Source: a virus (lineage: Duplodnaviria > Heunggongvirae > Uroviricota > Caudoviricetes). From it: a stretch of DNA of 33,311 bases. Below the pieces are notes generated by a model. That model did not search any database, had not been told where the DNA came from, and was given only the letters and a program-made list of their open reading frames with translations. The stretch spans positions 1 through 33,311 of the IMG/VR virus record IMGVR_UViG_2778261498_000008. One strand, written 5' to 3'. Of this stretch, positions 3,634 through 14,986 are shown piece after piece. Numbering within the stretch: position 1 is the stretch's first letter; the number at the start of each line of letters is the position of its first letter. Both the position numbers and the translations under genes were made by a program.

Positions 3634-3837
3634 ATGAACAAAAAGACCTGGTTTCGCGCATACATGTGGGCGCTGGTATGCGTCCTCGTTTCTCTCATTC
3701 TGTATGCAGGACTACTCCCCCGAATGATTTCATCAGACAGCTCCTTCCTGGTATTGCTGGGCATTTTCATTGCCATGCTGTACCCGGCAGGCGTTGTTCG
3801 CCTTTTCAGTAAGTACATCAAGGAAATCAAACAATGA
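3634..3837 (+). CDS. Small integral membrane protein (67 aa, two predicted TM helices)
   Basis: ATG 3634 with AAAGGA upstream; two hydrophobic stretches; stop overlaps the start of the next gene (ATGA at 3834-3837). Confidence 0.55.
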   Translation: MNKKTWFRAYMWALVCVLVSLILYAGLLPRMISSDSSFLVLLGIFIAMLYPAGVVRLFSKYIKEIKQ

Positions 3838-4664
3838 AGAAATTCAAACTCTTTCAGATTCTCCCGCTTTTTGCTGCCATCCTGCTGGTTGGTTGCGATC
3901 GCGTTGAGCCAGGTAATGTGGGCATCAAAGTCAACAAACTGGGCGACGACAAAGGCGTCGGTGAAGTGGTTGGCGTTGGCCGCTACTGGACAGGCTGGAA
4001 TACAGAGGTTTACATCTTCCCAACCTTCAAACAAATGAAGACCTACGATGAGCCGTTCAGCTTTCAGATGAGTGACGGCACAACCATCGGCTATCACATC
4101 GGTGTGGCCTACAAGGTTGATCCATCCAAAGTTACTACAGTGTTTCAGACCTACCGCAAAGGCGTGGATGACATTACCGACACTGACCTGCGCCAGAAGA
4201 TCGCCGACGCACTCAACCGACTGGCCAGTAAAATGACCACCGATAAATTTATCGACGGTGGCAAGTCTGAACTGCTGGATTCAGCACTTAAAGACATTCA
4301 GGCAGAAATGACACCTATCGGCATTCAGGTAATGAGCCTCTCTTATGTCGGTAAACCGGAATACCCACCAACCGTTATCGACAGCATTAATGCCAAAGTC
4401 ACGGCAAACCAGAAAACTCTGCAACGCGAACAGGAAGTCAAGCAGCGCGAAGCAGAAGCCAACATGCTACGCGCAGAAGCAGCCGGACAGGCTGATGCCA
4501 TTCGCACAAAAGCCCAGGCTGAAGCCGACGCCATTCGTTTGCGCGGTGAAGCTCTGCGCCAGAACCCCGGCGTTATGGAGCTGGAAGCTATCAACAAATG
4601 GAACGGCACGCTGCCGCAATACATGACCAGTAATACCGCTGTTCCGTTTGTTCCGGTGAAGTAA
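3834..4664 (+). CDS. Lipoprotein with SPFH/band-7-like domain and C-terminal Ala/Glu-rich coiled coil
   Basis: N-terminus MKKFKLFQILPLFAAILLVGC has a signal peptide and lipobox (LVGC); the C-terminal REAEANMLRAEAAGQADAIRTKAQAEADAIR tract resembles the EA-repeat coiled coil of HflK/HflC/flotillin-type proteins. Domain assignment is by pattern recognition only. Confidence 0.75.
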   Translation: MKKFKLFQILPLFAAILLVGCDRVEPGNVGIKVNKLGDDKGVGEVVGVGRYWTGWNTEVYIFPTFKQMKTYDEPFSFQMSDGTTIGYHIGVAYKVDPSKVTTVFQTYRKGVDDITDTDLRQKIADALNRLASKMTTDKFIDGGKSELLDSALKDIQAEMTPIGIQVMSLSYVGKPEYPPTVIDSINAKVTANQKTLQREQEVKQREAEANMLRAEAAGQADAIRTKAQAEADAIRLRGEALRQNPGVMELEAINKWNGTLPQYMTSNTAVPFVPVK

Positions 4665-4715: not shown

Positions 4716-4810
4716 GTATGCCGTTCTCACAAAAAAACCGCTTGCCATGCCGCAATCAGTCAGGTTACATTTCCGCTGCACCTCATAAAACGGGTGCCGG
4801 GATTTCCACC

Positions 4811-4852
4811 CCGCTGACTATACACGCGCACAACCGCGCCAGCGGTTTTTTT
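4811..4852 (+). terminator. GC-rich hairpin (CCGCTG...CAGCGG with inner GCGC stem) followed immediately by T7
   Basis: Read directly: stem 4811-4816 / 4840-4845, then TTTTTTT at 4846-4852. Looks like an intrinsic terminator or the 3' end of a small RNA. Confidence 0.5.
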
Positions 4853-5031
4853 GTGCGTACCGTATCGCCACGTCTTTTTCGCGTCAGAATTATGGTGGGG
4901 CGTATGGGGCCGACTTCGGTCGGGCCGGGTTCGTGTATAGCCGGTTGTGGAAACCCTGTACGTCTCACCACCCCGAGTTTTCCACCTCTGGATGGTGAGT
5001 TTTCAAAACTTACTATACACGAGGCCACACC

Positions 5032-5334: not shown

Positions 5335-5724
5335 ATGATTGACGCTCATGACTTCACAAGATGGGTGCGCACACAGGACACCCGTCTGGCTCCCGTTCTT
5401 CAGGGATTATTTGATCTTTACATCCGTGGTCGTGACAACAGAGCACGCACTACAAAACCGGAGAATGCGGACACCCTTTATTTCACAGTAGACGACTGCT
5501 ACCGCGTGGACTTCACACCACACGGGCTGGCGTTGCACTGCCTGACACCACACGGCGAATCACTGCTGGCGTATTACGACTCCCCGGCCTCCGTATTCGC
5601 GGCAATGCTGGCGCATCGCACTGCTGGCGGGTGTGCCTCGCTGAGTGAATACACCGCTGAATTTAACCGCCTTTCCGCCATCTTCTCGCAGGAGTGGCAG
5701 CGCGTGACGGGATACCAGCCATGA
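5335..5724 (+). CDS. Hypothetical protein (129 aa) immediately upstream of, and coupled to, gene A
   Basis: Stop overlaps the A start (ATGA at 5721-5724). Confidence 0.5.
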   Translation: MIDAHDFTRWVRTQDTRLAPVLQGLFDLYIRGRDNRARTTKPENADTLYFTVDDCYRVDFTPHGLALHCLTPHGESLLAYYDSPASVFAAMLAHRTAGGCASLSEYTAEFNRLSAIFSQEWQRVTGYQP

Positions 5725-8528
5725 GCGAGTTTGCATGGAGCTGGAATGAACCACGGCCAGCCATTGATCCGGCCAGATTTACGGAGCGCAGGCAGGAAAC
5801 TGAAACCGACCTGCAACGCGCCATCCGTTACTACCTTGAGGCGGACAAAAGGGCACAGGAAGAACAGGAAGCGAAGGAAGAAGCCTTTTTCGCACAATCC
5901 GCCATGGGTAAAAAACTCATGGCATCCCTTGAGGAAGCCGGACAGCGTGAAAAGCTGGCACAGAGCATCATCAGTAAGCGCCGGGCAACAGAACAAGACC
6001 CGGTAGCCCGTGCCTTTGCCACACTAAAGGCACTACCTGTTTATCTGCGTGAACCACTGAGCCGCCACCTCTCTTTCCTGCGCAAAAAACAGGAAGCCGA
6101 TCGCCAGAAAGGTAAAAAGAGCTGGCAGGCGGAACGCTATGCACGCGGACCCCTGCGCAAAATATTCGAACGTCTGGATCGCACTGACGGACGCTGGCTG
6201 ACACCGGGTTATCGCTCCCTTGCCGGGCGCGAACGCCTGGACGATTTGCTTTACCTGCCGCAGCTCAACAAGCACCAGATACAGACGCTGGCCACCATGA
6301 CCGCGGCGATGTTCAGCAGCACCTTCGAAACACTCTGCGATGGCTTTGGTGCCAGAGATGGCGAGCTGACCATGGATGTAATGTTGAAGGCTTACCGGAT
6401 GCTGGCTCGTATCGCATTACGCCTGCACATCATGCCGCCACATTACGAAGCCCTGAACAAGAGCGAACCGGATACGGAACTGCTGCCGGGCGCAATCCTT
6501 CGCCTGACCTGTGCGGACTGGTGGAAACGCAAACTGTGGCTGTTACGTTGCGAGTGGAGAGAAGAACAACTCCGCGCCGCCTGTCTGGTTTCCAGAAAAA
6601 CATCGCCTTATCTGAGCCAGGACGCGTTAAGCGAGTTTCGCGCACAGCGCGAGAAAACACGCGATTTCCTGAAAAGTTTCATGCTGGAAAACGAAGACGG
6701 GTTCACGATTGATCTCGAGACAGTGTATTACGCGGGAGTAAGTAACCCGGTTCACCGTAAGGCAGAAATGATGGCCACCATGAAGGGGCTGGAACTTCTG
6801 GCCGAAGCCCGTGGTGACAAAGCGGTGTTTCTGACTGTCACCTGCCCGTCAAAATACCACGCAACAACGGAGAACGGTCATCCGAACCCCAAATGGAACG
6901 GGGCCACCATGCGCGACTCCAGCGACTACCTGGTTAACACGTTTTTTGCGGCGGTCCGCAAAAAACTGAACCGCGACGGCCTGCGCTGGTATGGCATCCG
7001 CACGGTGGAGCCTCACCATGACGGCACCGTACACTGGCATATGATGGTCTTTGCCCATCCGGAAGAAATCGACACCATTGTGTCCCACACCCGCGATATT
7101 GCCATTCAGGAAGATCGTCACGAGCTGGGCGATGATATTACTCCGCGCTTTAAGGCGGAGTATGTAGACGGCTCAAAAGGCACGCCAACCAGCTACATCG
7201 CCACCTACATCGGAAAGAACCTGGACAGCCGCGCCGCGGATGGCATCGACCCGAAAACGGGCAAACCACGCGTTGACCACGAAACCGGAAAATCAATGGC
7301 CGAGAGCGTGGAGCGCGCCATCGGCTGGGCGCGCCTTCACCGGGTCCGCCAGTTCCAGTTCTTTGGCATCCCCTCCCGTCAGGTGTGGCGTGAACTCCGC
7401 CGCCTTGCCAGCCAGATGGCACGCAACCCGGAAGGCCCGCAACGGCTGAAGGATGACGCAATGGATGCGGTACTCGCTGCCGCTGATGCCGGATGTTTTG
7501 CCACCTATATAGAGAAACAGGGCGGCGTACTTGTTCCACGCAAGGACTACCTGATTCGCACCGCCTACGACCTCGCCGATGAGCTGAACGATTACGGCGA
7601 ACAGAGCGTACAGATTTACGGGATCTGGTCACCACTCATCGGGGAATCCTCCCGTGTGTGCACGCATCCGGATAACTGGAAGCTGGTAAGACGTAAACCG
7701 GAAGCGGAAGACAGCGCCCGCGAAAATGGTTTTGACCTTCAGGGCGGCCCTGCCGCCCCTTGGACTCGTGGCAATAACTGTCCCCGTGTACAGGAAACGG
7801 ACAACAACGGGACAGAACAGCCGGAAGAACGGTCAGCACCGTGGCCGCAGCTCCCTGACGGCGTTGAAGTGAACGAATGGATGCGCTCACTGAAACGGCA
7901 CGAACGCCGGGCGCTGATGCGTTCGCTTCGGCTTCGTGACAAACAGGCAAAAAACAGCAGTGATGAAATGCAGAGCTGGACACAGAGCCGCAAACAGCAG
8001 CGGCCTTTGCCTGATAACCACGAATTACTCGCTAAAGAATGGCGGGAATCTGCCGAATCTCTCGGCCTGCATATCGGTGAACAGCAGATGCAGCACCTGT
8101 TACGGGGCGGCAGCCTGTACGTTGACGGCAGCATCATTGCACCGCAGGGATTTGAAATTGTACGCAAACCGGATACCCGCCCGGACAGCCGAATCACGCA
8201 GCTCTGGCAGCGCCTGAGCCGTAATCACGGCGTAAGCAGCACAGAGATCCGCCATAACCCGGTCGCCAGCTATCTGGAACAACTGGGGGCATCAGACCCC
8301 GAAGCCGCCGCACGTCTGGCATCCACACTTCAGCAGGACCAGAACACCATGAAAACCCCCGTTACCGTGCTTTCTGACATGTTGCGCGCCATCCGTGACG
8401 CAGAGCACGCACAGAGAATCAGTGAAACCACTGAGCGCGCCCACCGCAAAGCAGACCTGCTGCGGGGTAGCCTGACCAGTGGAAACAAAAAAACAGACAG
8501 AAACGGGATTCACAAATCCCGTAAATGA
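5721..8528 (+). CDS. A: Rolling-circle replication initiation endonuclease (P2 gpA family)
   Basis: Contains an HUH-type metal-binding motif (HWHMMVFAHP) and a tandem-tyrosine segment (SYIATYIGKN) typical of gpA-type nickases; sits after the early operon as in P2. ATG 5721 chosen over the upstream in-frame track start (5694). Confidence 0.9.
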   Translation: MSEFAWSWNEPRPAIDPARFTERRQETETDLQRAIRYYLEADKRAQEEQEAKEEAFFAQSAMGKKLMASLEEAGQREKLAQSIISKRRATEQDPVARAFATLKALPVYLREPLSRHLSFLRKKQEADRQKGKKSWQAERYARGPLRKIFERLDRTDGRWLTPGYRSLAGRERLDDLLYLPQLNKHQIQTLATMTAAMFSSTFETLCDGFGARDGELTMDVMLKAYRMLARIALRLHIMPPHYEALNKSEPDTELLPGAILRLTCADWWKRKLWLLRCEWREEQLRAACLVSRKTSPYLSQDALSEFRAQREKTRDFLKSFMLENEDGFTIDLETVYYAGVSNPVHRKAEMMATMKGLELLAEARGDKAVFLTVTCPSKYHATTENGHPNPKWNGATMRDSSDYLVNTFFAAVRKKLNRDGLRWYGIRTVEPHHDGTVHWHMMVFAHPEEIDTIVSHTRDIAIQEDRHELGDDITPRFKAEYVDGSKGTPTSYIATYIGKNLDSRAADGIDPKTGKPRVDHETGKSMAESVERAIGWARLHRVRQFQFFGIPSRQVWRELRRLASQMARNPEGPQRLKDDAMDAVLAAADAGCFATYIEKQGGVLVPRKDYLIRTAYDLADELNDYGEQSVQIYGIWSPLIGESSRVCTHPDNWKLVRRKPEAEDSARENGFDLQGGPAAPWTRGNNCPRVQETDNNGTEQPEERSAPWPQLPDGVEVNEWMRSLKRHERRALMRSLRLRDKQAKNSSDEMQSWTQSRKQQRPLPDNHELLAKEWRESAESLGLHIGEQQMQHLLRGGSLYVDGSIIAPQGFEIVRKPDTRPDSRITQLWQRLSRNHGVSSTEIRHNPVASYLEQLGASDPEAAARLASTLQQDQNTMKTPVTVLSDMLRAIRDAEHAQRISETTERAHRKADLLRGSLTSGNKKTDRNGIHKSRK

Positions 8529-8601
8529 GCAAAAAACGTGCCGCGATATATGAAGCGCGCACAAAACAGGCAAAAGCGGGATTTAAAAATCCTGTAAACG
8601 A
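8504..8601. repeat. Two copies of a ~25-bp dyad element (CGGGATTcacaaATCCCGTAAATGA at 8504-8528; CGGGATTtaaaaATCCTGTAAACGA at 8577-8601); candidate parC-like centromere/operator
   Basis: Read directly; copies are 73 bp apart, straddle the A stop codon and lie just upstream of the parM-like gene. Only two copies, so the centromere assignment is tentative. Confidence 0.35.
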
Positions 8602-8629
8602 TTAATTAATCAACATAAGGAAAAGCGAC

Positions 8630-9589
8630 ATGAAAATTCACATCGACGACGGCTCCACCAACATCAAGCTGGCATGGACTGAGAACGGCGAACGCCGCAA
8701 CGCCATCAGCCCGAACAGCTTCAAGTCGGAATGGTCTGCGCCGTTCGGTGGCACGCAGCCCGCGAACTACATGCTTGATGGCGTGCGCTATGGTTTTGAT
8801 CCGGTCAGCGATCGCTTTGTCCAGACGACCGACACGCAATACCAATACAGCGATGTGAATGTCATTGCCATTCATCACGCGCTGGTCAAATCAGGCATCA
8901 CGCCACAGGAGGTGGATGTGGTTGTCACCCTGCCACTGAGCGAGTATTTCGACACAAACGCACAGCCGGACATGGCCAACATCAACCGCAAAAAAGCGAA
9001 CGTTATGCGCCCGGTGGAGTACCAGAACGGCGAAGCATTCACTATCCGTAACGTGCGGGTTATGCCTGAATCCATTCCGGCTGGCTTTAAGGCACTGGCT
9101 GACATGAGTCCGTTTGAATCCCTGCTGATTGTGGATTTGGGCGGAACCACGCTGGATGTGGCAAAAGTTCAGGGGCAACTGGCAGGTATCAGCCAGGTGT
9201 TTTGCGATCCACACGTAGGCGTTTCTCTGATGGCCGATGCCGTACTGTCGGTGATGGCCACTAACGGTATGCGCACCAGTCACCACATCGCCAATACCAT
9301 TATCGAACATCGCCATGATGAAGCCTGGCTGCGCCAGCACATCCACAATGACGCGCATTACGCCAGCCTGATGGCGGTTATTCGTGAAAAGGAAGAAACA
9401 CTGAAACAACGCGTGATCCGCGCGCTGGCGGGTTTTTCGGGTTACGGGCGGGTGATGGTTGTCGGTGGCGGGGCGGAGATTGTGGCACCCGCTATCCGCG
9501 AAGCCTGCGGAGTTAATGCGAATTTCATCGCGGACGGGGTGCCACAGTTTGCTCTGGTTAATGGGCTGTACGCAATGGACAAGGAGTAA
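8630..9589 (+). CDS. parM: Actin-like segregation ATPase, ParM/StbA family
   Basis: N-terminus MKIHIDDGSTNIKLAW...ISPNSFK...YSDVNVIAIHHAL and later VMPESIPAG, LIVDLGGTTLDV and VMVVGGGAE closely parallel plasmid R1 ParM as recalled; AAGGAAAAG SD upstream. Confidence 0.85.
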   Translation: MKIHIDDGSTNIKLAWTENGERRNAISPNSFKSEWSAPFGGTQPANYMLDGVRYGFDPVSDRFVQTTDTQYQYSDVNVIAIHHALVKSGITPQEVDVVVTLPLSEYFDTNAQPDMANINRKKANVMRPVEYQNGEAFTIRNVRVMPESIPAGFKALADMSPFESLLIVDLGGTTLDVAKVQGQLAGISQVFCDPHVGVSLMADAVLSVMATNGMRTSHHIANTIIEHRHDEAWLRQHIHNDAHYASLMAVIREKEETLKQRVIRALAGFSGYGRVMVVGGGAEIVAPAIREACGVNANFIADGVPQFALVNGLYAMDKE

Positions 9590-9593
9590 ACCA

Positions 9594-9905
9594 ATGACGA
9601 CTCCAACCAGACGGATAAGTTTCTATCTGAAGCCCGCCGCCGTCAAGAACGAAGGCGAAGCATGCGCCTGGCTGGACAGCCTTACACCAGAAGCCCGCAA
9701 AAGCGGCCAACGCGTGGCTTTTCTGGCCGGGCTGGCACTTCTGAAAATGAATCCAGCAGAGGCTTACCGACTGGCTGCATGGGCTGACGATGAGGCGTTA
9801 TCGGTGACACAAACCAGGACAGAACGCCCCGTGTCACAGCCAGTACCAACCACACAGATAACCAGTCAGATGGCAGGGAATATCCGGGCATTATTTCCTG
9901 AATGA
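9594..9905 (+). CDS. parR: ParR/StbB-like centromere-binding adaptor
   Basis: 4 bp after the parM stop with AAGGAG SD; product shares the R1 ParR pattern as recalled (RRISFYLKP..., LDS, AFLAGLALL, C-terminal IRALFPE versus R1 ILRSLFPKE). Confidence 0.65.
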   Translation: MTTPTRRISFYLKPAAVKNEGEACAWLDSLTPEARKSGQRVAFLAGLALLKMNPAEAYRLAAWADDEALSVTQTRTERPVSQPVPTTQITSQMAGNIRALFPE

Positions 9906-9965
9906 CGAATTTGACGGCTTTTAATTTTATCGGGGTGCACTGTCGCCCCGCGCGAGGAAAACACG

Positions 9966-10490
9966 ATGAAAAAATACGAATACATGCTAATGAAAGAAGC
10001 ACTGCGGGCTGGTCTGGCTCCCTGTCCTGTATCCGTAGAAGCTGTTGTTGGGAACACGATTTTCCGAACGCTGCGAAATCGCGTATCCGTGAAGATGATT
10101 CACCAACCACCCAAATCTACCAGCATGATCTATCTGCCGCTGCCCGAGGCTATCAAACTTATGCGTTCGCTGAAATTTGCGATTTGGATGCAGACACAAC
10201 TCAACAAAGCGGTGCAAAACACCTTCGTTAAGAAACTGATGCCGGAGCTTGCTGCCAGATGTGCAAAATGTACCAGACCCGCACTTCAATTTGATCTGTC
10301 ATTGATTCAACAAGCTACGGAGGCAGAACTGTACCGCCTGTCACCTCTCCATGATGCTCACACGGAAGCCTCAGAAATGTTCCGGCTCATGTTTCAATTT
10401 AATTTTGCCGTTCGACGCACACGCATTCAGGTCAATCGCATGATGCAGGCGCAGGAAGAGCTGACGCAACACAAAGGAGGCAACCAGTGA
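9966..10490 (+). CDS. Hypothetical protein (174 aa), accessory
   Basis: ATG 9966 with AGGAAA upstream; no recognisable family by eye. Confidence 0.5.
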   Translation: MKKYEYMLMKEALRAGLAPCPVSVEAVVGNTIFRTLRNRVSVKMIHQPPKSTSMIYLPLPEAIKLMRSLKFAIWMQTQLNKAVQNTFVKKLMPELAARCAKCTRPALQFDLSLIQQATEAELYRLSPLHDAHTEASEMFRLMFQFNFAVRRTRIQVNRMMQAQEELTQHKGGNQ

Positions 10491-10662
10491 GCAAAATTGA
10501 CTATCAGGCATTACGCGAGGCGGCACAAAACTATCAATCGACGCTGGCGTGGTATGAGGTTGACGCGGGCTAGTTTTGCCGCAAGGATAATTCGTTTCAG
10601 CGGGTGATTTTTTGCGCTATCATTCCGGCAGTGGTTCACGATTATTGGCAGGAAAGGCAATT

Positions 10663-11256
10663 ATGAGCAGTAAAAAAAATAAAATAACATCTATGGCCGC
10701 AGCGCTGGCGGTGGCTCTCGCCCCTGTTCCTGCCAGTAGCATTGTGCATCATGACTTATCAATCTCCCGGCACAGTACGTCTACGCTATCCCTCCAGGAC
10801 GTAAAGGATTCTGTGGCATACCTTCCTATTGATGAGGCCACCAGTTATATGCTTAACCTGGCTGATAGGATGAAGACACACAGGGCAAACCTTCGCATCG
10901 AATGGGAAGAAAAGCAGATCCCTATTATTCTGAAAAATCAGAAAAAAGAGACTCAGGAAGGGTTTGAAAGCCTTTTCCGTCATATTGCGGTATGTGCAAG
11001 TTTTGTCGAGGCTGCAAGGGTTGCGCTGAAAAGCGTACCTGAAAGTAACGCGGAACTGAGAAAAGAGATTGTCGCTTTTGCTCGTTCCGCTGCGACGCTC
11101 CGCTATACGATTGAAGATATTTTATCCTTCATTGAAAGCACGCATGTGCCGAAGAAAACTTCAGATGCTGATCTGGGTGTTACCGCCGATCAGGTTCGCG
11201 CACTTATCCGCAGTGAACATAAAAAGCTGGGCCTTAAAGATCCAACGTTCCATTAA
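10663..11256 (+). CDS. Hypothetical protein (197 aa) with signal-peptide-like N-terminus; putative partner of the downstream toxin homologue
   Basis: ATG 10663 preceded by AGGAAAGG; N-terminus MSSKKNKITSMAAALAVALAPVPASS has a positive n-region, hydrophobic core and a VPA-S cleavage-like site. The track ORF starts 51 nt earlier without an SD. The region is visibly more AT-rich than the phage backbone. Confidence 0.5.
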   Translation: MSSKKNKITSMAAALAVALAPVPASSIVHHDLSISRHSTSTLSLQDVKDSVAYLPIDEATSYMLNLADRMKTHRANLRIEWEEKQIPIILKNQKKETQEGFESLFRHIAVCASFVEAARVALKSVPESNAELRKEIVAFARSAATLRYTIEDILSFIESTHVPKKTSDADLGVTADQVRALIRSEHKKLGLKDPTFH

Positions 11257-11265
11257 GGCAGGGCC

Positions 11266-11646
11266 ATGATTAAAGTCTCTGTCCACAATGACATAGAACT
11301 CCCCGCAGTTGCTCGTAAATATGCACATGCTTTGCAGTCATGGAAAAACGGCGGATCTTTACCCTCAGTCTTTGGCAACGAAGGGCAGTGGGAAGATAGC
11401 GGGCGTCTTCGTGATTCTTTTGTTTTTAAGATTCACATTCGTTTACCTGATGAACAGCCGTGGCCTGCAAAGCTACCTGCCGCCTCGCGTAAATCAAACA
11501 GTTATCTTGTTTACTCCCGCCATTTCTTATATCCAGATAAGTATCAGCTAATCAGCATTATGACACCCAATGCGCATGAGTTAGCCCGTACATCCTACAT
11601 GGCAGAAATTGAGCGCAGAGCAGAAGAGTTCCAGTCTTCTTTTTGA
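11266..11646 (+). CDS. YafO-family toxin homologue (ribosome-dependent mRNA interferase family)
   Basis: 126-aa product matches E. coli YafO as recalled in several blocks: LPSVFGNEG vs LPDIFGRD; HIRLPDEQPWPAKLPAASRKSNSYLVYSRH vs HIHLANENNPFPPQLRQFSRTNDEAHLVYCQG; C-terminal LISIMTPNAHELAR...AEEF vs LLIAILKPEPHKLAR...AEAF. 9 bp after the upstream gene. Confidence 0.7.
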   Translation: MIKVSVHNDIELPAVARKYAHALQSWKNGGSLPSVFGNEGQWEDSGRLRDSFVFKIHIRLPDEQPWPAKLPAASRKSNSYLVYSRHFLYPDKYQLISIMTPNAHELARTSYMAEIERRAEEFQSSF

Positions 11647-11684
11647 GTTTTGCGACGACTATCTATCAATCCCTTACTAATCTG

Positions 11685-11718
11685 AAAAGCTGCCTTTTGA
11701 AGGCGGCTTTTCTTTCTT
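11685..11718 (+). terminator. Intrinsic terminator (AAAAGCTGCC / GGCGGCTTTT stem, T-rich tail)
   Basis: 10-bp stem (one G-U pair) with 7-nt loop followed by CTTTCTT; flanked by A-run and T-run so could act in both directions. Confidence 0.6.
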
Positions 11719-11737
11719 CCTGGCCTTCTTTCTCTGT

Positions 11738-11764
11738 TGCACAATAGTGCACAAATTTGCACAA
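11738..11764. repeat. Three direct TGCACAA repeats phased at exactly 10 bp (11738, 11748, 11758)
   Basis: Read directly; helical phasing suggests a protein-binding array in the region expected to hold cos and packaging signals. Confidence 0.4.
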
Positions 11765-12188
11765 TTTTTTTGAACGACTTTTTACCCTTCCGGCCCGCAT
11801 GGCGGCTGGATCCGTCAAGGATCCGTGCGCGCACAAAAAAACGCGCTTTTTCTGCGCGCAGGTGACGGGGGAACAGCCCGCGTTTCTGGGGGTAAATAGC
11901 GTTCCCTTAACGATGTCGCAGCGACACGACAGAATGGCCGTATTTCTCACGCTGAGCGTGAAAAATACGTGAGGGATTCTGGTTTGATGGGGTGAAAGGT
12001 AAGGCCGTCAAAATCGCACTGAGGCGGCGAGAACATGCAGTCAGCGCAGTGGGATTGCGTAAGAATCTGACCGTCGATGATGGCAATAAGCAGGAAAGCA
12101 TCGTGAAATTATCTGACTGATACAGGAGCTGGAGAGTCGGGGCATAAATTTTTTATGCCCCGGCGAAGCAGCAGACAAGCGAAGCGCG

Positions 12189-13235
12189 TCAGGATGTGGG
12201 CTGGGTATCTAACAGTGCGTAAGGGTTAAAGCGGATCACCTCTTCGCCAAGCCAGTCATTGATGTGCTTCATGGCCTCCATGACGGGCATCAGCTCGTTA
12301 ATTGCGTAAACCCGCGCGGCCTTCTCCACATCACCAAACGCACTTTTTTCGCCCGGCATCGCCCCCATCAGTTGCGGCGGAACGCGGTGCGCAGCCAGCA
12401 CATCATCACGGGATGCCGCCTTAACATTCATGAACTCATCCTTTGCGGTGATCTGCTGGAACGGCAAAATTTGCACCCCCTCTTTGCCCCCGTTGGGCGC
12501 ATGAATGAGCACGTTTTTAAACGCACCACCACCACGTGCCCCCTGTAGCGTTTCTTTCAGGGAGTCCATGCTTTCGCGGTTTACCTGCGCTGCACCGATG
12601 TAGATGATGCACCCGGCGTGGGATCCGTTGTCGTAGTACAGTTTTCTGAACATGTCCGCCGAATGAGAAAGGCTGGCCGAGAGTAATGCGCCAAGATATT
12701 CCGGCATGCCGTAGATTTCCTGGTTAATATCCGGATTCATCAGGTGGCACACTTTACCAGGGCGAAACTGAAACGCATCCTTGCCATCCTGCACATACCA
12801 CCATGATTCAAGATCGCTTCCGCGTCGCATGTATTTCGCCAGGGCGTGCCGTAATTTAAGCGGTTCGCCGAGCATATTGCTCCGAAGCTCAAGGAATGCG
12901 TTACCGAACACAAACCAGTCCAGCGCCAGCGCCGAGAAATCCTGCCGGGAAAGCAGCGGGTGCGGAATATAGCAGCCGAGCAATACATTGCGCTTAAAGT
13001 AAAGCGCAGACTGATGCCAGGACGTTTGCCGGGCAGCTCTTGCCAGACCGTACCAGTCCACCGGGGTTTCATACCACCGCCCGTTATCAGCACAGTACAT
13101 ATTGTCCAGCAGGTCATGCCCGGTCAGGCGATAAGGACCATCAAATGTGAATGCACTGAGCGATGATTCTTTCCTGAGCGCATCAGCGAGATCAATGCGT
13201 GAACTCATGCGCACTTTTTTATTTTTTCTGCTCAT
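12189..13235 (-). CDS. Q: Portal protein (P2 gpQ family)
   Basis: 348-aa product, leftward operon with the large terminase as in P2; length and position match gpQ. Confidence 0.9.
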   Translation of the reverse strand: MSRKNKKVRMSSRIDLADALRKESSLSAFTFDGPYRLTGHDLLDNMYCADNGRWYETPVDWYGLARAARQTSWHQSALYFKRNVLLGCYIPHPLLSRQDFSALALDWFVFGNAFLELRSNMLGEPLKLRHALAKYMRRGSDLESWWYVQDGKDAFQFRPGKVCHLMNPDINQEIYGMPEYLGALLSASLSHSADMFRKLYYDNGSHAGCIIYIGAAQVNRESMDSLKETLQGARGGGAFKNVLIHAPNGGKEGVQILPFQQITAKDEFMNVKAASRDDVLAAHRVPPQLMGAMPGEKSAFGDVEKAARVYAINELMPVMEAMKHINDWLGEEVIRFNPYALLDTQPTS

Positions 13236-14986
13236 CAGAACTCCATAACCGTGAAACGCTCGTTTTCTCCTTCGCCGCCAATCGGTTCATTAATGACAGC
13301 AAGCATGGTTGCCCACGCAAGGTCGCCGTGGCTGATCCCCCTCGCTCGGTCCGTTTCGTAAGTGATAAAGCCGCCCGGTGTTTTCACCTTACGTACGGCG
13401 TTAAAGGCCGCGACCAGCTCGCGTTCGGCACGATCGTATTCCCACCGCCCGGCACGCATTATTTGCAGCATTTTCAGTACCAGCGACCGTTTTGATGACA
13501 GCGTGAAGGTGTACGGAATAGCAGCAGGGAAAAACCGTTTCACTATCTGATAAACGGCATCCCCGTGCCCGCCAGTCGCATCAATGCCGATGTGTTCCAC
13601 GTTGTAGCGACACGTGAACTCTTCAATGACTCTGGCCTGTTCTTCAAACTCCAGCCCCTGAACGCGTCGCGTCTCCACCGTTCGAAAACGGCCACCAGGA
13701 ACAGCCGGAGGAACCACCACGGACACCGCGCCGCTGTCGCCGTTTCCACTGCTGCCGTTTGCGTCATACCCAATCCATACCGGACGATTCCCCATCGGGC
13801 GGGGAGCAAAAGGTTTCCAGTCTTTCCAGTCGTCGTATCCGTCAACACCGCAGCCAATCAGGATATTCAGGTTAAATGCCGATTCCCCTTCGCGGACAAA
13901 CTCACACATATAGAGATTGCGGAACTCGTCTTCGGTGTTTTCATCACGAATTTCATCAATATCGGTGTGTTTCCAGCCGTGATTAACCACATCTTCCAGC
14001 GTGACAATTTGCCGCCACGTCCGGTCGGGGCAGATAAGTCCGTTATGCAGCGTTTTCCAGTCCACAGAAAAACGCTGGCGTTTATGCGCGGCCTTTTTCT
14101 CGTTCCAGCGGTCGCCGTTCCAATAGACGTATGCCTCGTGCGTTTCGGTGGATGGCGTGGAGAAGTAGGTGCGCCGCAGTCCGCTGAGGGTTGCCATAGC
14201 GCCAGCCACCTTGCGCAGTTCAGCAAAGCGACTGACCCAGAAAAATTCATCAAAATAAAAATTGCCTGTGTAGGACTGTGCCGTCGCAGCAGAAGTACCG
14301 AGAAAATGCAGTTCTGCGCCGTTGGAGAGGATGATTTTATCGCCCCCTTTCAGCTCCACATCAACTTCAGCCGCGGCCTTCTGAATAATGCTTTTAAACT
14401 GGAACGCCTGACGACGCGACGCAGACAAAAAAATCTGGTTACGCTGGTAAGGTTGTGCCACATCGTCACGCAGCGCCATCAGCAGTGCTTCCTGTGCAAA
14501 ATACCAGGTCGCCCCAATCTGTCGGGATTTCAGGATCATCCTGTTACGTATCCCGGCTTCACTGCAAAGGGTCAGGGAGTCAAACCAGCCCCGCTGATGC
14601 CACTCCAGCCTGCTGATGATTTTTTCCCGCAGTGCGGCAATCTGCTCCGGCGTGAAATGATTTTTAAGTTTTTTCGCCCGGCCTTTCTTTCCTGTGGCCG
14701 TCGCATCCGGCTGGCCATCATGCAGTTTTTTAAGCTGCCGGGTCAGCAGGTCTATTTCCTTAAAGTCACCACCTGTTTTATTCTGTTTTTCAGTAAGCTG
14801 GATGAGGCGCGCATCGATGGACTGCGTGACACGCTGCACGGGTGGCGTTTCATCCCACTGGTCGCGTTTTTTCCACGCATAAATCGTGTTCGGGTTTATT
14901 CCCATCAGACGTGATATTTCTGCGGGCGGATAACCCTGCCAGTAAAGTTGCCGCGCACGCTGGCGCACAAAAGCGTCCTGAATCAT
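13235..14986 (-). CDS. P: Terminase large subunit / ATPase (P2 gpP family)
   Basis: 583-aa product upstream of the portal on the same strand; length and position match P2 gpP. Confidence 0.9.
   Translation of the reverse strand: MIQDAFVRQRARQLYWQGYPPAEISRLMGINPNTIYAWKKRDQWDETPPVQRVTQSIDARLIQLTEKQNKTGGDFKEIDLLTRQLKKLHDGQPDATATGKKGRAKKLKNHFTPEQIAALREKIISRLEWHQRGWFDSLTLCSEAGIRNRMILKSRQIGATWYFAQEALLMALRDDVAQPYQRNQIFLSASRRQAFQFKSIIQKAAAEVDVELKGGDKIILSNGAELHFLGTSAATAQSYTGNFYFDEFFWVSRFAELRKVAGAMATLSGLRRTYFSTPSTETHEAYVYWNGDRWNEKKAAHKRQRFSVDWKTLHNGLICPDRTWRQIVTLEDVVNHGWKHTDIDEIRDENTEDEFRNLYMCEFVREGESAFNLNILIGCGVDGYDDWKDWKPFAPRPMGNRPVWIGYDANGSSGNGDSGAVSVVVPPAVPGGRFRTVETRRVQGLEFEEQARVIEEFTCRYNVEHIGIDATGGHGDAVYQIVKRFFPAAIPYTFTLSSKRSLVLKMLQIMRAGRWEYDRAERELVAAFNAVRKVKTPGGFITYETDRARGISHGDLAWATMLAVINEPIGGEGENERFTVMEF

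Follow-up and report, generated by a model that had tools for sequence, protein, structure and literature searches.

The interval between gpA and gpQ of phage P2 is a hotspot of variable, accessory genes, which in P2 itself holds tin and old, and the locus is a reservoir of anti-phage systems with experimental support (PMC9122126). Its commonest item is a parM-parR (parMR) partition pair, recorded as Plasmid_stab_B with StbA, system no. 1 of the hotspot, in 4,592/18,150 loci, which corresponds to roughly one in four P2-like prophages of E. coli (Rousset et al. 2022, PMC9122126). YafO, a toxin of E. coli K-12, is a ribosome-dependent mRNA endonuclease (review PMC7781912). Here we analyze the corresponding interval of the IMG/VR record IMGVR_UViG_2778261498_000008, a stretch of 33,311 nucleotides (the window) that megablast identifies as a P88-like member of the P2 family (Xuanwuvirus). 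An original prediction made from the letters alone had described this interval as one five-gene accessory block, possibly an undescribed maintenance or defence module, composed of a ParM/ParR-like pair, two proteins of 174 and 197 aa that could not be assigned (here hyp174 and hyp197), and a YafO-like toxin. We find instead that the region from gpA to cos is a mosaic of three independent units, namely parMR, a leftover hyp174 gene and a YafO cassette. The pair within that cassette is best described as a YafO toxin whose partner is non-homologous and apparently exported. The partition part adds nothing new beyond its upstream repeats, and the value of the locus lies in the YafO cassette.

The hyp197-YafO pair and its linkage across genera

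The five open reading frames (ORFs) and the terminator lie where the original prediction had placed them (ORF list and terminator scan), and Pfam profile searches bear out its ParM, ParR and YafO assignments. The last gene (11266-11646, + strand) encodes a 126-aa protein that matches Pfam YafO_toxin (PF13957) at 2.3e-27, with 95.5 bits against a cutoff of 25 and 99/101 profile positions covered. It scores 59.4 bits against the NCBIfam YafO equivalog PRK09885, under the cutoff of 153, and shares 34% identity over 106 aa with E. coli K-12 YafO; judged by these scores it is a member of the YafO family and not the K-12 orthologue. Its start codon stands 9 nt past the stop of hyp197 (10663-11256, + strand), a stop that overlaps an AAGG/GAGG motif. 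In other pairs ATG/GTG overlaps also occur at the gene junction.

The pairing of these two genes is strict. In 9/9 distinct genomic contexts a 197-209-aa homologue of hyp197 lies directly upstream of a 124-128-aa PF13957 gene, with an intergenic gap of 0-12 nt or a short overlap, and in IMG/VR all 13 of the 13 partner loci with downstream sequence have YafO 5-22 nt further on, which brings the linkage to 22/22 evaluable loci. It also holds in reverse, since 11/11 checked loci of this YafO clade (at least 52% identity) have the partner upstream. Pairwise identities of partner and toxin are correlated (r = 0.90 over 36 pairs), with faster divergence of the partner (24–78% versus 48–90% for the toxin). 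hyp197 thereby represents a small protein family obligately linked to one YafO clade; it comprises 23 clusters at 90% identity, none with a Pfam domain in precomputed annotation, and a profile search against 1.84 billion representatives returned 33 clusters at 50% identity.

Across Enterobacterales the pair moves among prophage cargo sites of at least five kinds. In a P2-like prophage of Erwinia pyrifoliae it occupies the A-to-portal hotspot, beside HicAB (L006, 4656-5287), and it also occurs in an unrelated P2-like phage out of a sequencing run. In Buttiauxella and Serratia proteamaculans the pair adjoins an integrase; S. marcescens has it behind tail genes, S. fonticola behind ogr, and a Xenorhabdus lambdoid prophage between its Q antiterminator and holin genes. 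A further copy is chromosomal, at an rne-sbcB site where phage genes are absent. In E. coli the full cassette is present in 7/5,426 complete genomes, with 98.9–99.9% identity among the seven.

Some of these loci hold further genes of the same general type. The HicAB pair shares the Erwinia hotspot with hyp197-YafO, and a ParE-like toxin gene (L008, 1-110) lies about 6 kb upstream of another hyp197-YafO pair, before gene A, which points to a stacking of toxin-antitoxin-type cargo in such P2-like prophages. A distant homologue of the partner, P0110 (L062, 3001-3600; L063, 241-840), is located after gene A of a P2-like phage, adjoining HicA/HicB, and has a hydrophilic N-terminus. Finally, a separate YafO branch, 33% identical to the window toxin (L059, 2460-3423; also L060 and L061), is preceded by a helical ORF of 182 aa overlapping the start of the toxin gene, and both genes stand just after a tape-measure-like gene. 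This ORF ends in a look-alike C-terminus, TQADLDELIADSNRRYGING, and was considered and rejected as a hyp197 homologue (hhalign probability 0.25%).

The two proteins left unassigned in the original prediction, hyp197 and hyp174, match no family in Pfam, PHROGs, PADLOC or NCBIfam, and profile searches of hyp197 against PDB sequences found nothing. The N-terminus of hyp197 reads KKNK, then MAAALAVALAPV, then PAS|S, which is the n/h/c layout of a Sec signal peptide. An AlphaFold2 model (predicted local distance difference test, pLDDT, 70.6 overall and 80-93 in the core) has a disordered first 51 residues (linker to about 52) with a short hydrophobic helix, a three-helix bundle (56-84, 95-124 and 130-159), a low-confidence tether and a C-terminal helix at 175-188 (...LIRSEHKKLGL); fold searches with it returned generic helical bundles only. 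The most distant partners, at 22–31% identity to hyp197, have in common with it the motifs LAPVPAxS, LPxxEA, F(G/A)RxxA and EH+xLGL. Conservation is highest in the signal-like segment (mean major-residue frequency 0.71 versus 0.49 in the core), where APVPA is nearly invariant, and second highest in the C-terminal helix (0.67). Synonymous codons vary freely in the N-terminal segment, and selection therefore acts on the peptide.

The pair is flanked by signals of its own. A promoter-like element, GATTTTTTGCGCTATCAT, lies at 10606-10623 (+ strand) about 40 nt before the hyp197 start codon and includes a -10-like TATCAT at 10618-10623. The element (T)TTTTGCGCTATCAT precedes the partner gene in L005, L006 and L011, and a variant does so in L008, among flanks that are otherwise unrelated; this conservation across genera suggests a promoter function. 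A consensus promoter scan of 8400-12300 returned zero sigma-70 sites. Downstream of the toxin gene an intrinsic terminator (11684-11712, + strand) has a 13-pair stem, a 3-nt loop and a T-rich tail. Element, two genes and terminator together have what appears to be the anatomy of an autonomous, "moron"-like unit.

Both proteins of the pair are already on record, as system no. 123, "YafO_toxin", of Table S5B of Rousset et al., where the two sequences are identical to hyp197 and the window toxin. This is a catalogue entry only, with 24 occurrences and a signal peptide flagged on protein 1 (PMC9122126). We found no later literature on a hyp197-YafO pair in searches combining YafO with phage defence, P2-like, NetFlax or signal peptide. 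YafO is not in the main text of two 2026 defence-discovery papers, and the accessible part of the DefensePredictor supplements contains neither YafO nor the two accessions of the pair. New here are the cross-genus linkage, the cassette boundaries and the anatomy of the partner. Thus the proposal of an undescribed module holds insofar as the pair is an uncharacterised candidate for defence or maintenance, and fails insofar as the pair was catalogued and parMR published.

Cassette replacement and the three units of the interval

The block lies between a Phage_GPA gene and the portal gene, which is the locus of PMC9122126, and its placement in the equivalent of the tin/old hotspot was thus correct. 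In the commonest relatives (L001, L003) the order is A, parM, parR, hyp174, an Ead/Ea22-like gene, cos and portal. Nucleotide homology to this parMR-hyp174-Ead variant covers 8400-10518 and then 11734-12400 (blastn against L001), and therefore 1,215 bp (10519-11733, + strand), holding the -10-like element, hyp197, YafO and the terminator, have replaced 594 bp of the Ead/Ea22 variant. Within this segment, DNA conservation between genera is limited to about 10591-11653. It opens with the conserved -10-like element TTTTTGCGCTATCAT, and blastn matches to the Serratia and Buttiauxella pairs span 10595/10605 to 11646/11653. The segment has a GC content of about 47–48%, versus 53–60% in most flanking 500-bp windows.

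The left junction of the replacement falls in a pseudogene. An ead/Ea22-like remnant of 28 codons (10487-10573, + strand) is homologous to the intact gene up to 10518, where the homology stops, and in E. coli DSM 103246 this stretch carries the PGAP annotation "ead/Ea22-like, incomplete" (pseudogene). In all other contexts seen, hyp174 (174 aa; 9966-10490, + strand) has an Ead_Ea22 gene downstream with a 4-bp overlap, and a zf-C4_ClpX gene is often found before it. By this comparison hyp174 is the orphaned first gene of a hyp174-Ead/Ea22 pair, left once its downstream partner was cut, and it seems to belong to a small accessory operon and not to the partition or YafO units. The protein is conserved, with homologues in 8 clusters only; its AlphaFold2 model (pLDDT 51.6) is too weak for use, and a profile search against PDB sequences found nothing.

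The three units differ in their phylogenetic distribution and each is found without the others. In phage P88 and several relatives, what is shared is limited to parMR and the cos-proximal end, with other cargo between these, and the YafO pair is without parMR in every non-E. coli context examined. Synteny thus upholds the association of hyp197 with YafO, which co-occur, and not that of parMR or hyp174, which are separable from the pair. Non-unity of the five genes, the ead/Ea22-like remnant and a pair of 39-nt repeats described below had all been missed in the original prediction. The interval illustrates how the hotspot evolves: cassettes are replaced, and scars in the form of pseudogenes are left behind.

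The partition unit is readily identified. ParM (319 aa; 8630-9589, + strand) is an actin-like partition ATPase that matches Pfam StbA_N (6.3e-82), the ParM C-terminal domain (1.8e-68), PHROG 691 "partition protein" (9e-90) and plasmid R1 ParM (PDB 1mwk, E 5.9e-93 over residues 2-316). After a gap of 4 nt follows the adaptor parR/stbB (103 aa; 9594-9905, + strand), which matches Pfam Plasmid_stab_B (1.6e-24) and PHROG 2515 "partition protein" (2.4e-58); it matched no PDB chain by sequence. parMR is conserved across P88-like phages and is a fixed backbone of that lineage. Its presence in the hotspot is already published, as system no. 1, and this part of the block is not undescribed; the two 39-nt repeats are new here.

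These direct repeats, at 8490-8528 and 8563-8601, make up a candidate parC centromere/operator (8490-8601), and each holds the palindrome CGGGATT-N4-AATCC(C/T)G. Their 21-nt core occurs 2 times in the window, against 0.01 expected. The palindrome is found in 7/61 loci, the remaining 54 lacking it, and the 7 carry parMR wherever annotated or checked; in L023 both repeats lie in non-coding DNA upstream of parM, despite a different upstream gene. It is reasonable to regard the repeats as a parC candidate to which ParR may bind. The first repeat extends over the final codons of gene A, whose 944-aa protein has its Phage_GPA domain restricted to residues 194-513; with these codons encoded by a parC-like repeat, the 3′ end of gene A appears fused to the par cassette at the cassette's left end.

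By analogy with plasmid partition, ParR would bind the two palindromic repeats (cassette about 8490-9905) and filaments of ParM-ATP would force apart the sister copies of the phage's circular genome, a process that would be relevant only as long as the phage is present in the form of an extrachromosomal circle. Two points speak against such a role: P2-type replication is an A-dependent rolling circle, for which stable plasmid carriage is not obviously possible, and there are two repeats here versus ten iterons in R1 parC. A complete P88-like genome with integrase, cox, gene A, parMR and all structural genes has been deposited as a circular 34,461-bp E. coli "plasmid" (L021; NZ_CP148288.1, 1-34461). 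This record may stem from carriage in the plasmid state or from an excised circle that the assembly captured, and is compatible with extrachromosomal carriage, without proving it.

Proposed function of the YafO cassette

On balance we think it probable that the YafO pair is a toxin-antitoxin-type cassette in which hyp197 neutralises YafO and which serves exclusion, abortive infection or addiction. Such a cassette is the best fit because the pairing is tight, portable and co-diverging. Its position in a hotspot known as a reservoir of anti-phage systems also favours this reading. As in generic type II toxin-antitoxin systems, the two genes are adjacent, co-directional, tightly coupled and co-inherited. 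We assume from its family that the 126-aa protein would cleave mRNA in a ribosome-dependent manner and arrest growth; a YafO-family toxin is expected to be a ribosome-associated mRNA endonuclease that blocks translation. As its cognate neutraliser, hyp197 might hold the toxin inactive through either the tethered C-terminal helix or the N-terminal LAPVPA segment, and the conservation of this helix together with the hyper-conserved N-terminal motif argues for a binding element. If hyp197 were lost, be it after a shut-off of host expression (as when another phage infects) or after the element itself is lost, YafO would be released to arrest translation, and the outcome may be abortive infection, exclusion or addiction.

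Several observations weigh against this reading. A Sec signal peptide is predicted for hyp197, by Phobius in Table S5B of Rousset et al. and by family-wide heuristics here, and if the protein is exported the usual sequestering of a cytoplasmic toxin is impossible. It has no DNA-binding domain detectable with Pfam, PHROGs, PADLOC or NCBIfam and has roughly double the length that is usual for type II antitoxins. What lies upstream of the window toxin is not a Phd/YefM-type YafN antitoxin either, as hyp197 has no Pfam match and its family is unrelated to YafN (hhalign probability 0.4%). Acidic/basic charge complementarity between partner and toxin was tested and followed no consistent pattern, and P0110 is a partner homologue without YafO, the sole orphan seen. 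As to a role in defence, a PADLOC-DB 2.0.0 search run on all five block proteins gave zero model matches at E up to 1, and YafO is absent from the main text of PMC9122126 and from its accessible further supplementary files, which describe the cloned systems.

The signal peptide is also central to the rival that survives best, which is possible but rather doubtful: hyp197 would be exported to the periplasm and would not be an antitoxin at all, acting on the envelope, for example as a superinfection exclusion or lysogenic-conversion factor, while YafO is controlled otherwise or the two proteins cooperate by another route. The Phobius prediction concerns the exact hyp197 sequence, the n/h/c architecture is kept across homologues that are 22–78% identical, and a hydrophobic stretch of about 12-14 residues ending in V-P-A|S suits a cleavable signal better than a membrane anchor; the absence of a DNA-binding or known antitoxin domain in the library searches likewise counts in favour of this rival. 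Conversely, the 1.06-kb conserved unit offers no other candidate to neutralise YafO (Rfam finds no RNA there), and its two genes are linked and co-diverge as tightly as those of toxin-antitoxin pairs. Selection at the protein level that makes the signal-like segment the most conserved part of the family would be unusual for a plain export signal. Moreover, the sole relative without the LAPVPA segment, P0110, is also the sole relative without YafO.

A toxin-antitoxin-type cassette and an export-like N-terminus might be reconciled if that N-terminus is a control element, which we put forward as a speculative and rather improbable variant. The pre-protein would neutralise YafO in the cytoplasm and then be continuously removed, by Sec-dependent export or by chaperone/protease recognition of LAPVPA instead of Lon/Clp proteolysis, so that a halt in synthesis (phage-induced host shut-off or element loss) would free the toxin. 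If true, this would be a new route to antitoxin lability and would link the export machinery to abortive infection. More generally, if the partner is an antitoxin it would be of a new type for a RelE-like ribosome-dependent RNase, with an apparent export signal that needs explaining; if it is not, the family would define a YafO clade without a recognisable antitoxin.

It is also unlikely that parMR and the YafO pair form a plasmid-style stability region, in which partition and post-segregational killing keep the P88-like genome extrachromosomal. The two functions do adjoin here, and the circular 34.5-kb plasmid record would fit such carriage. However, the units are independently distributed, so a joint stability region is not required: the Rousset survey has 4,592 parMR versus 24 YafO-pair loci, just 7/5,426 complete E. 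coli genomes have the cassette, and all non-E. coli contexts examined have the pair without parMR. The window also encodes an integrase, and a near-identical element is chromosomally integrated next to pheA.

Far less probable is a decaying hitch-hiker without current function. The rarity of the cassette in complete E. coli genomes, and its having landed by destroying another gene, would agree with this, but both ORFs are intact, conservation across genera is at the protein level with synonymous variation, and the seven E. coli carriers are nearly identical. A single co-functional, undescribed system of all five genes, as their common direction, tight packing and single strong terminal terminator might suggest, is hardly credible given the pseudogene remnant and recombination junction in mid-block and a distribution in which each unit occurs without the others.

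The surrounding element and comparison with known systems

The integrase (1-1023) forms the left edge of the window. The Phage_GPA replication gene (gene A, identified by Pfam) occupies 5694-8528 on the + strand, and the right neighbour of the block is the portal gene (12189-13235, − strand), which with the terminase genes spans 12189-14986 (− strand). We considered that the element might be a P2-like phage-plasmid without integrase and rejected this, given the integrase at 1-1023 and a near-identical prophage integrated beside pheA in E. coli DSM 103246. The right limit of the cargo region is set by a candidate cos core at 11861-11879, GGTGACGGGGGAACAGCCC, which we take to resemble the P2 cohesive end. 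A 54-nt stretch at 11831-11882 has 85% identity to the equivalent position in an otherwise differing Erwinia P2-like prophage. Rfam has no match within the block.

Elsewhere in the element, the early operon includes a 67-aa hydrophobic ORF followed by a 276-aa lipoprotein-like SPFH/Band 7 protein (3634-4664, + strand; Pfam 7.6e-31). Different genes stand at this site in the E. coli DSM 103246 prophage, which is otherwise near-identical, and the two genes of the window may be a second cargo pair. Rfam matches at gathering level on the + strand comprise isrK at 4778-4852 (63.5 bits) and a C4 antisense RNA at 4888-4975 (77.3 bits), a P1/P7-type C4 immunity RNA region (4778-4975) within a P2-family prophage.

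Among described systems, P2 tin and old occupy the same slot between gene A and cos and are likewise accessory and variable, but have no homology with the proteins of the window's block. The partition unit resembles ParMRC (StbA/StbB) of plasmid R1 in its close ParM homologue, its ParR in Plasmid_stab_B and its order of repeats, parM and parR. It differs in residing in an integrating P2-family phage, not a plasmid, and in its candidate centromere, which has two 39-nt palindrome-bearing units where R1 parC consists of ten 11-bp iterons.

For the YafO cassette, toxin-antitoxin-chaperone (TAC) systems with SecB-like chaperones offer a possible functional analogy only. On this analogy the antitoxin would be made labile or controllable through a hydrophobic segment recognised by export factors or chaperones; the window cassette has no chaperone gene, and its segment is N-terminal. 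Also comparable is YafN-YafO of the K-12 dinB operon, with the same Pfam toxin family at 34% identity and the same arrangement of an upstream partner and then the toxin at tight spacing. The window pair differs from it in lying outside a dinB/SOS operon, in a toxin that falls below the NCBIfam equivalog cutoff, and in a helical partner of 197 aa with a signal-peptide-like N-terminus, which is unrelated to the 97-aa YafN.

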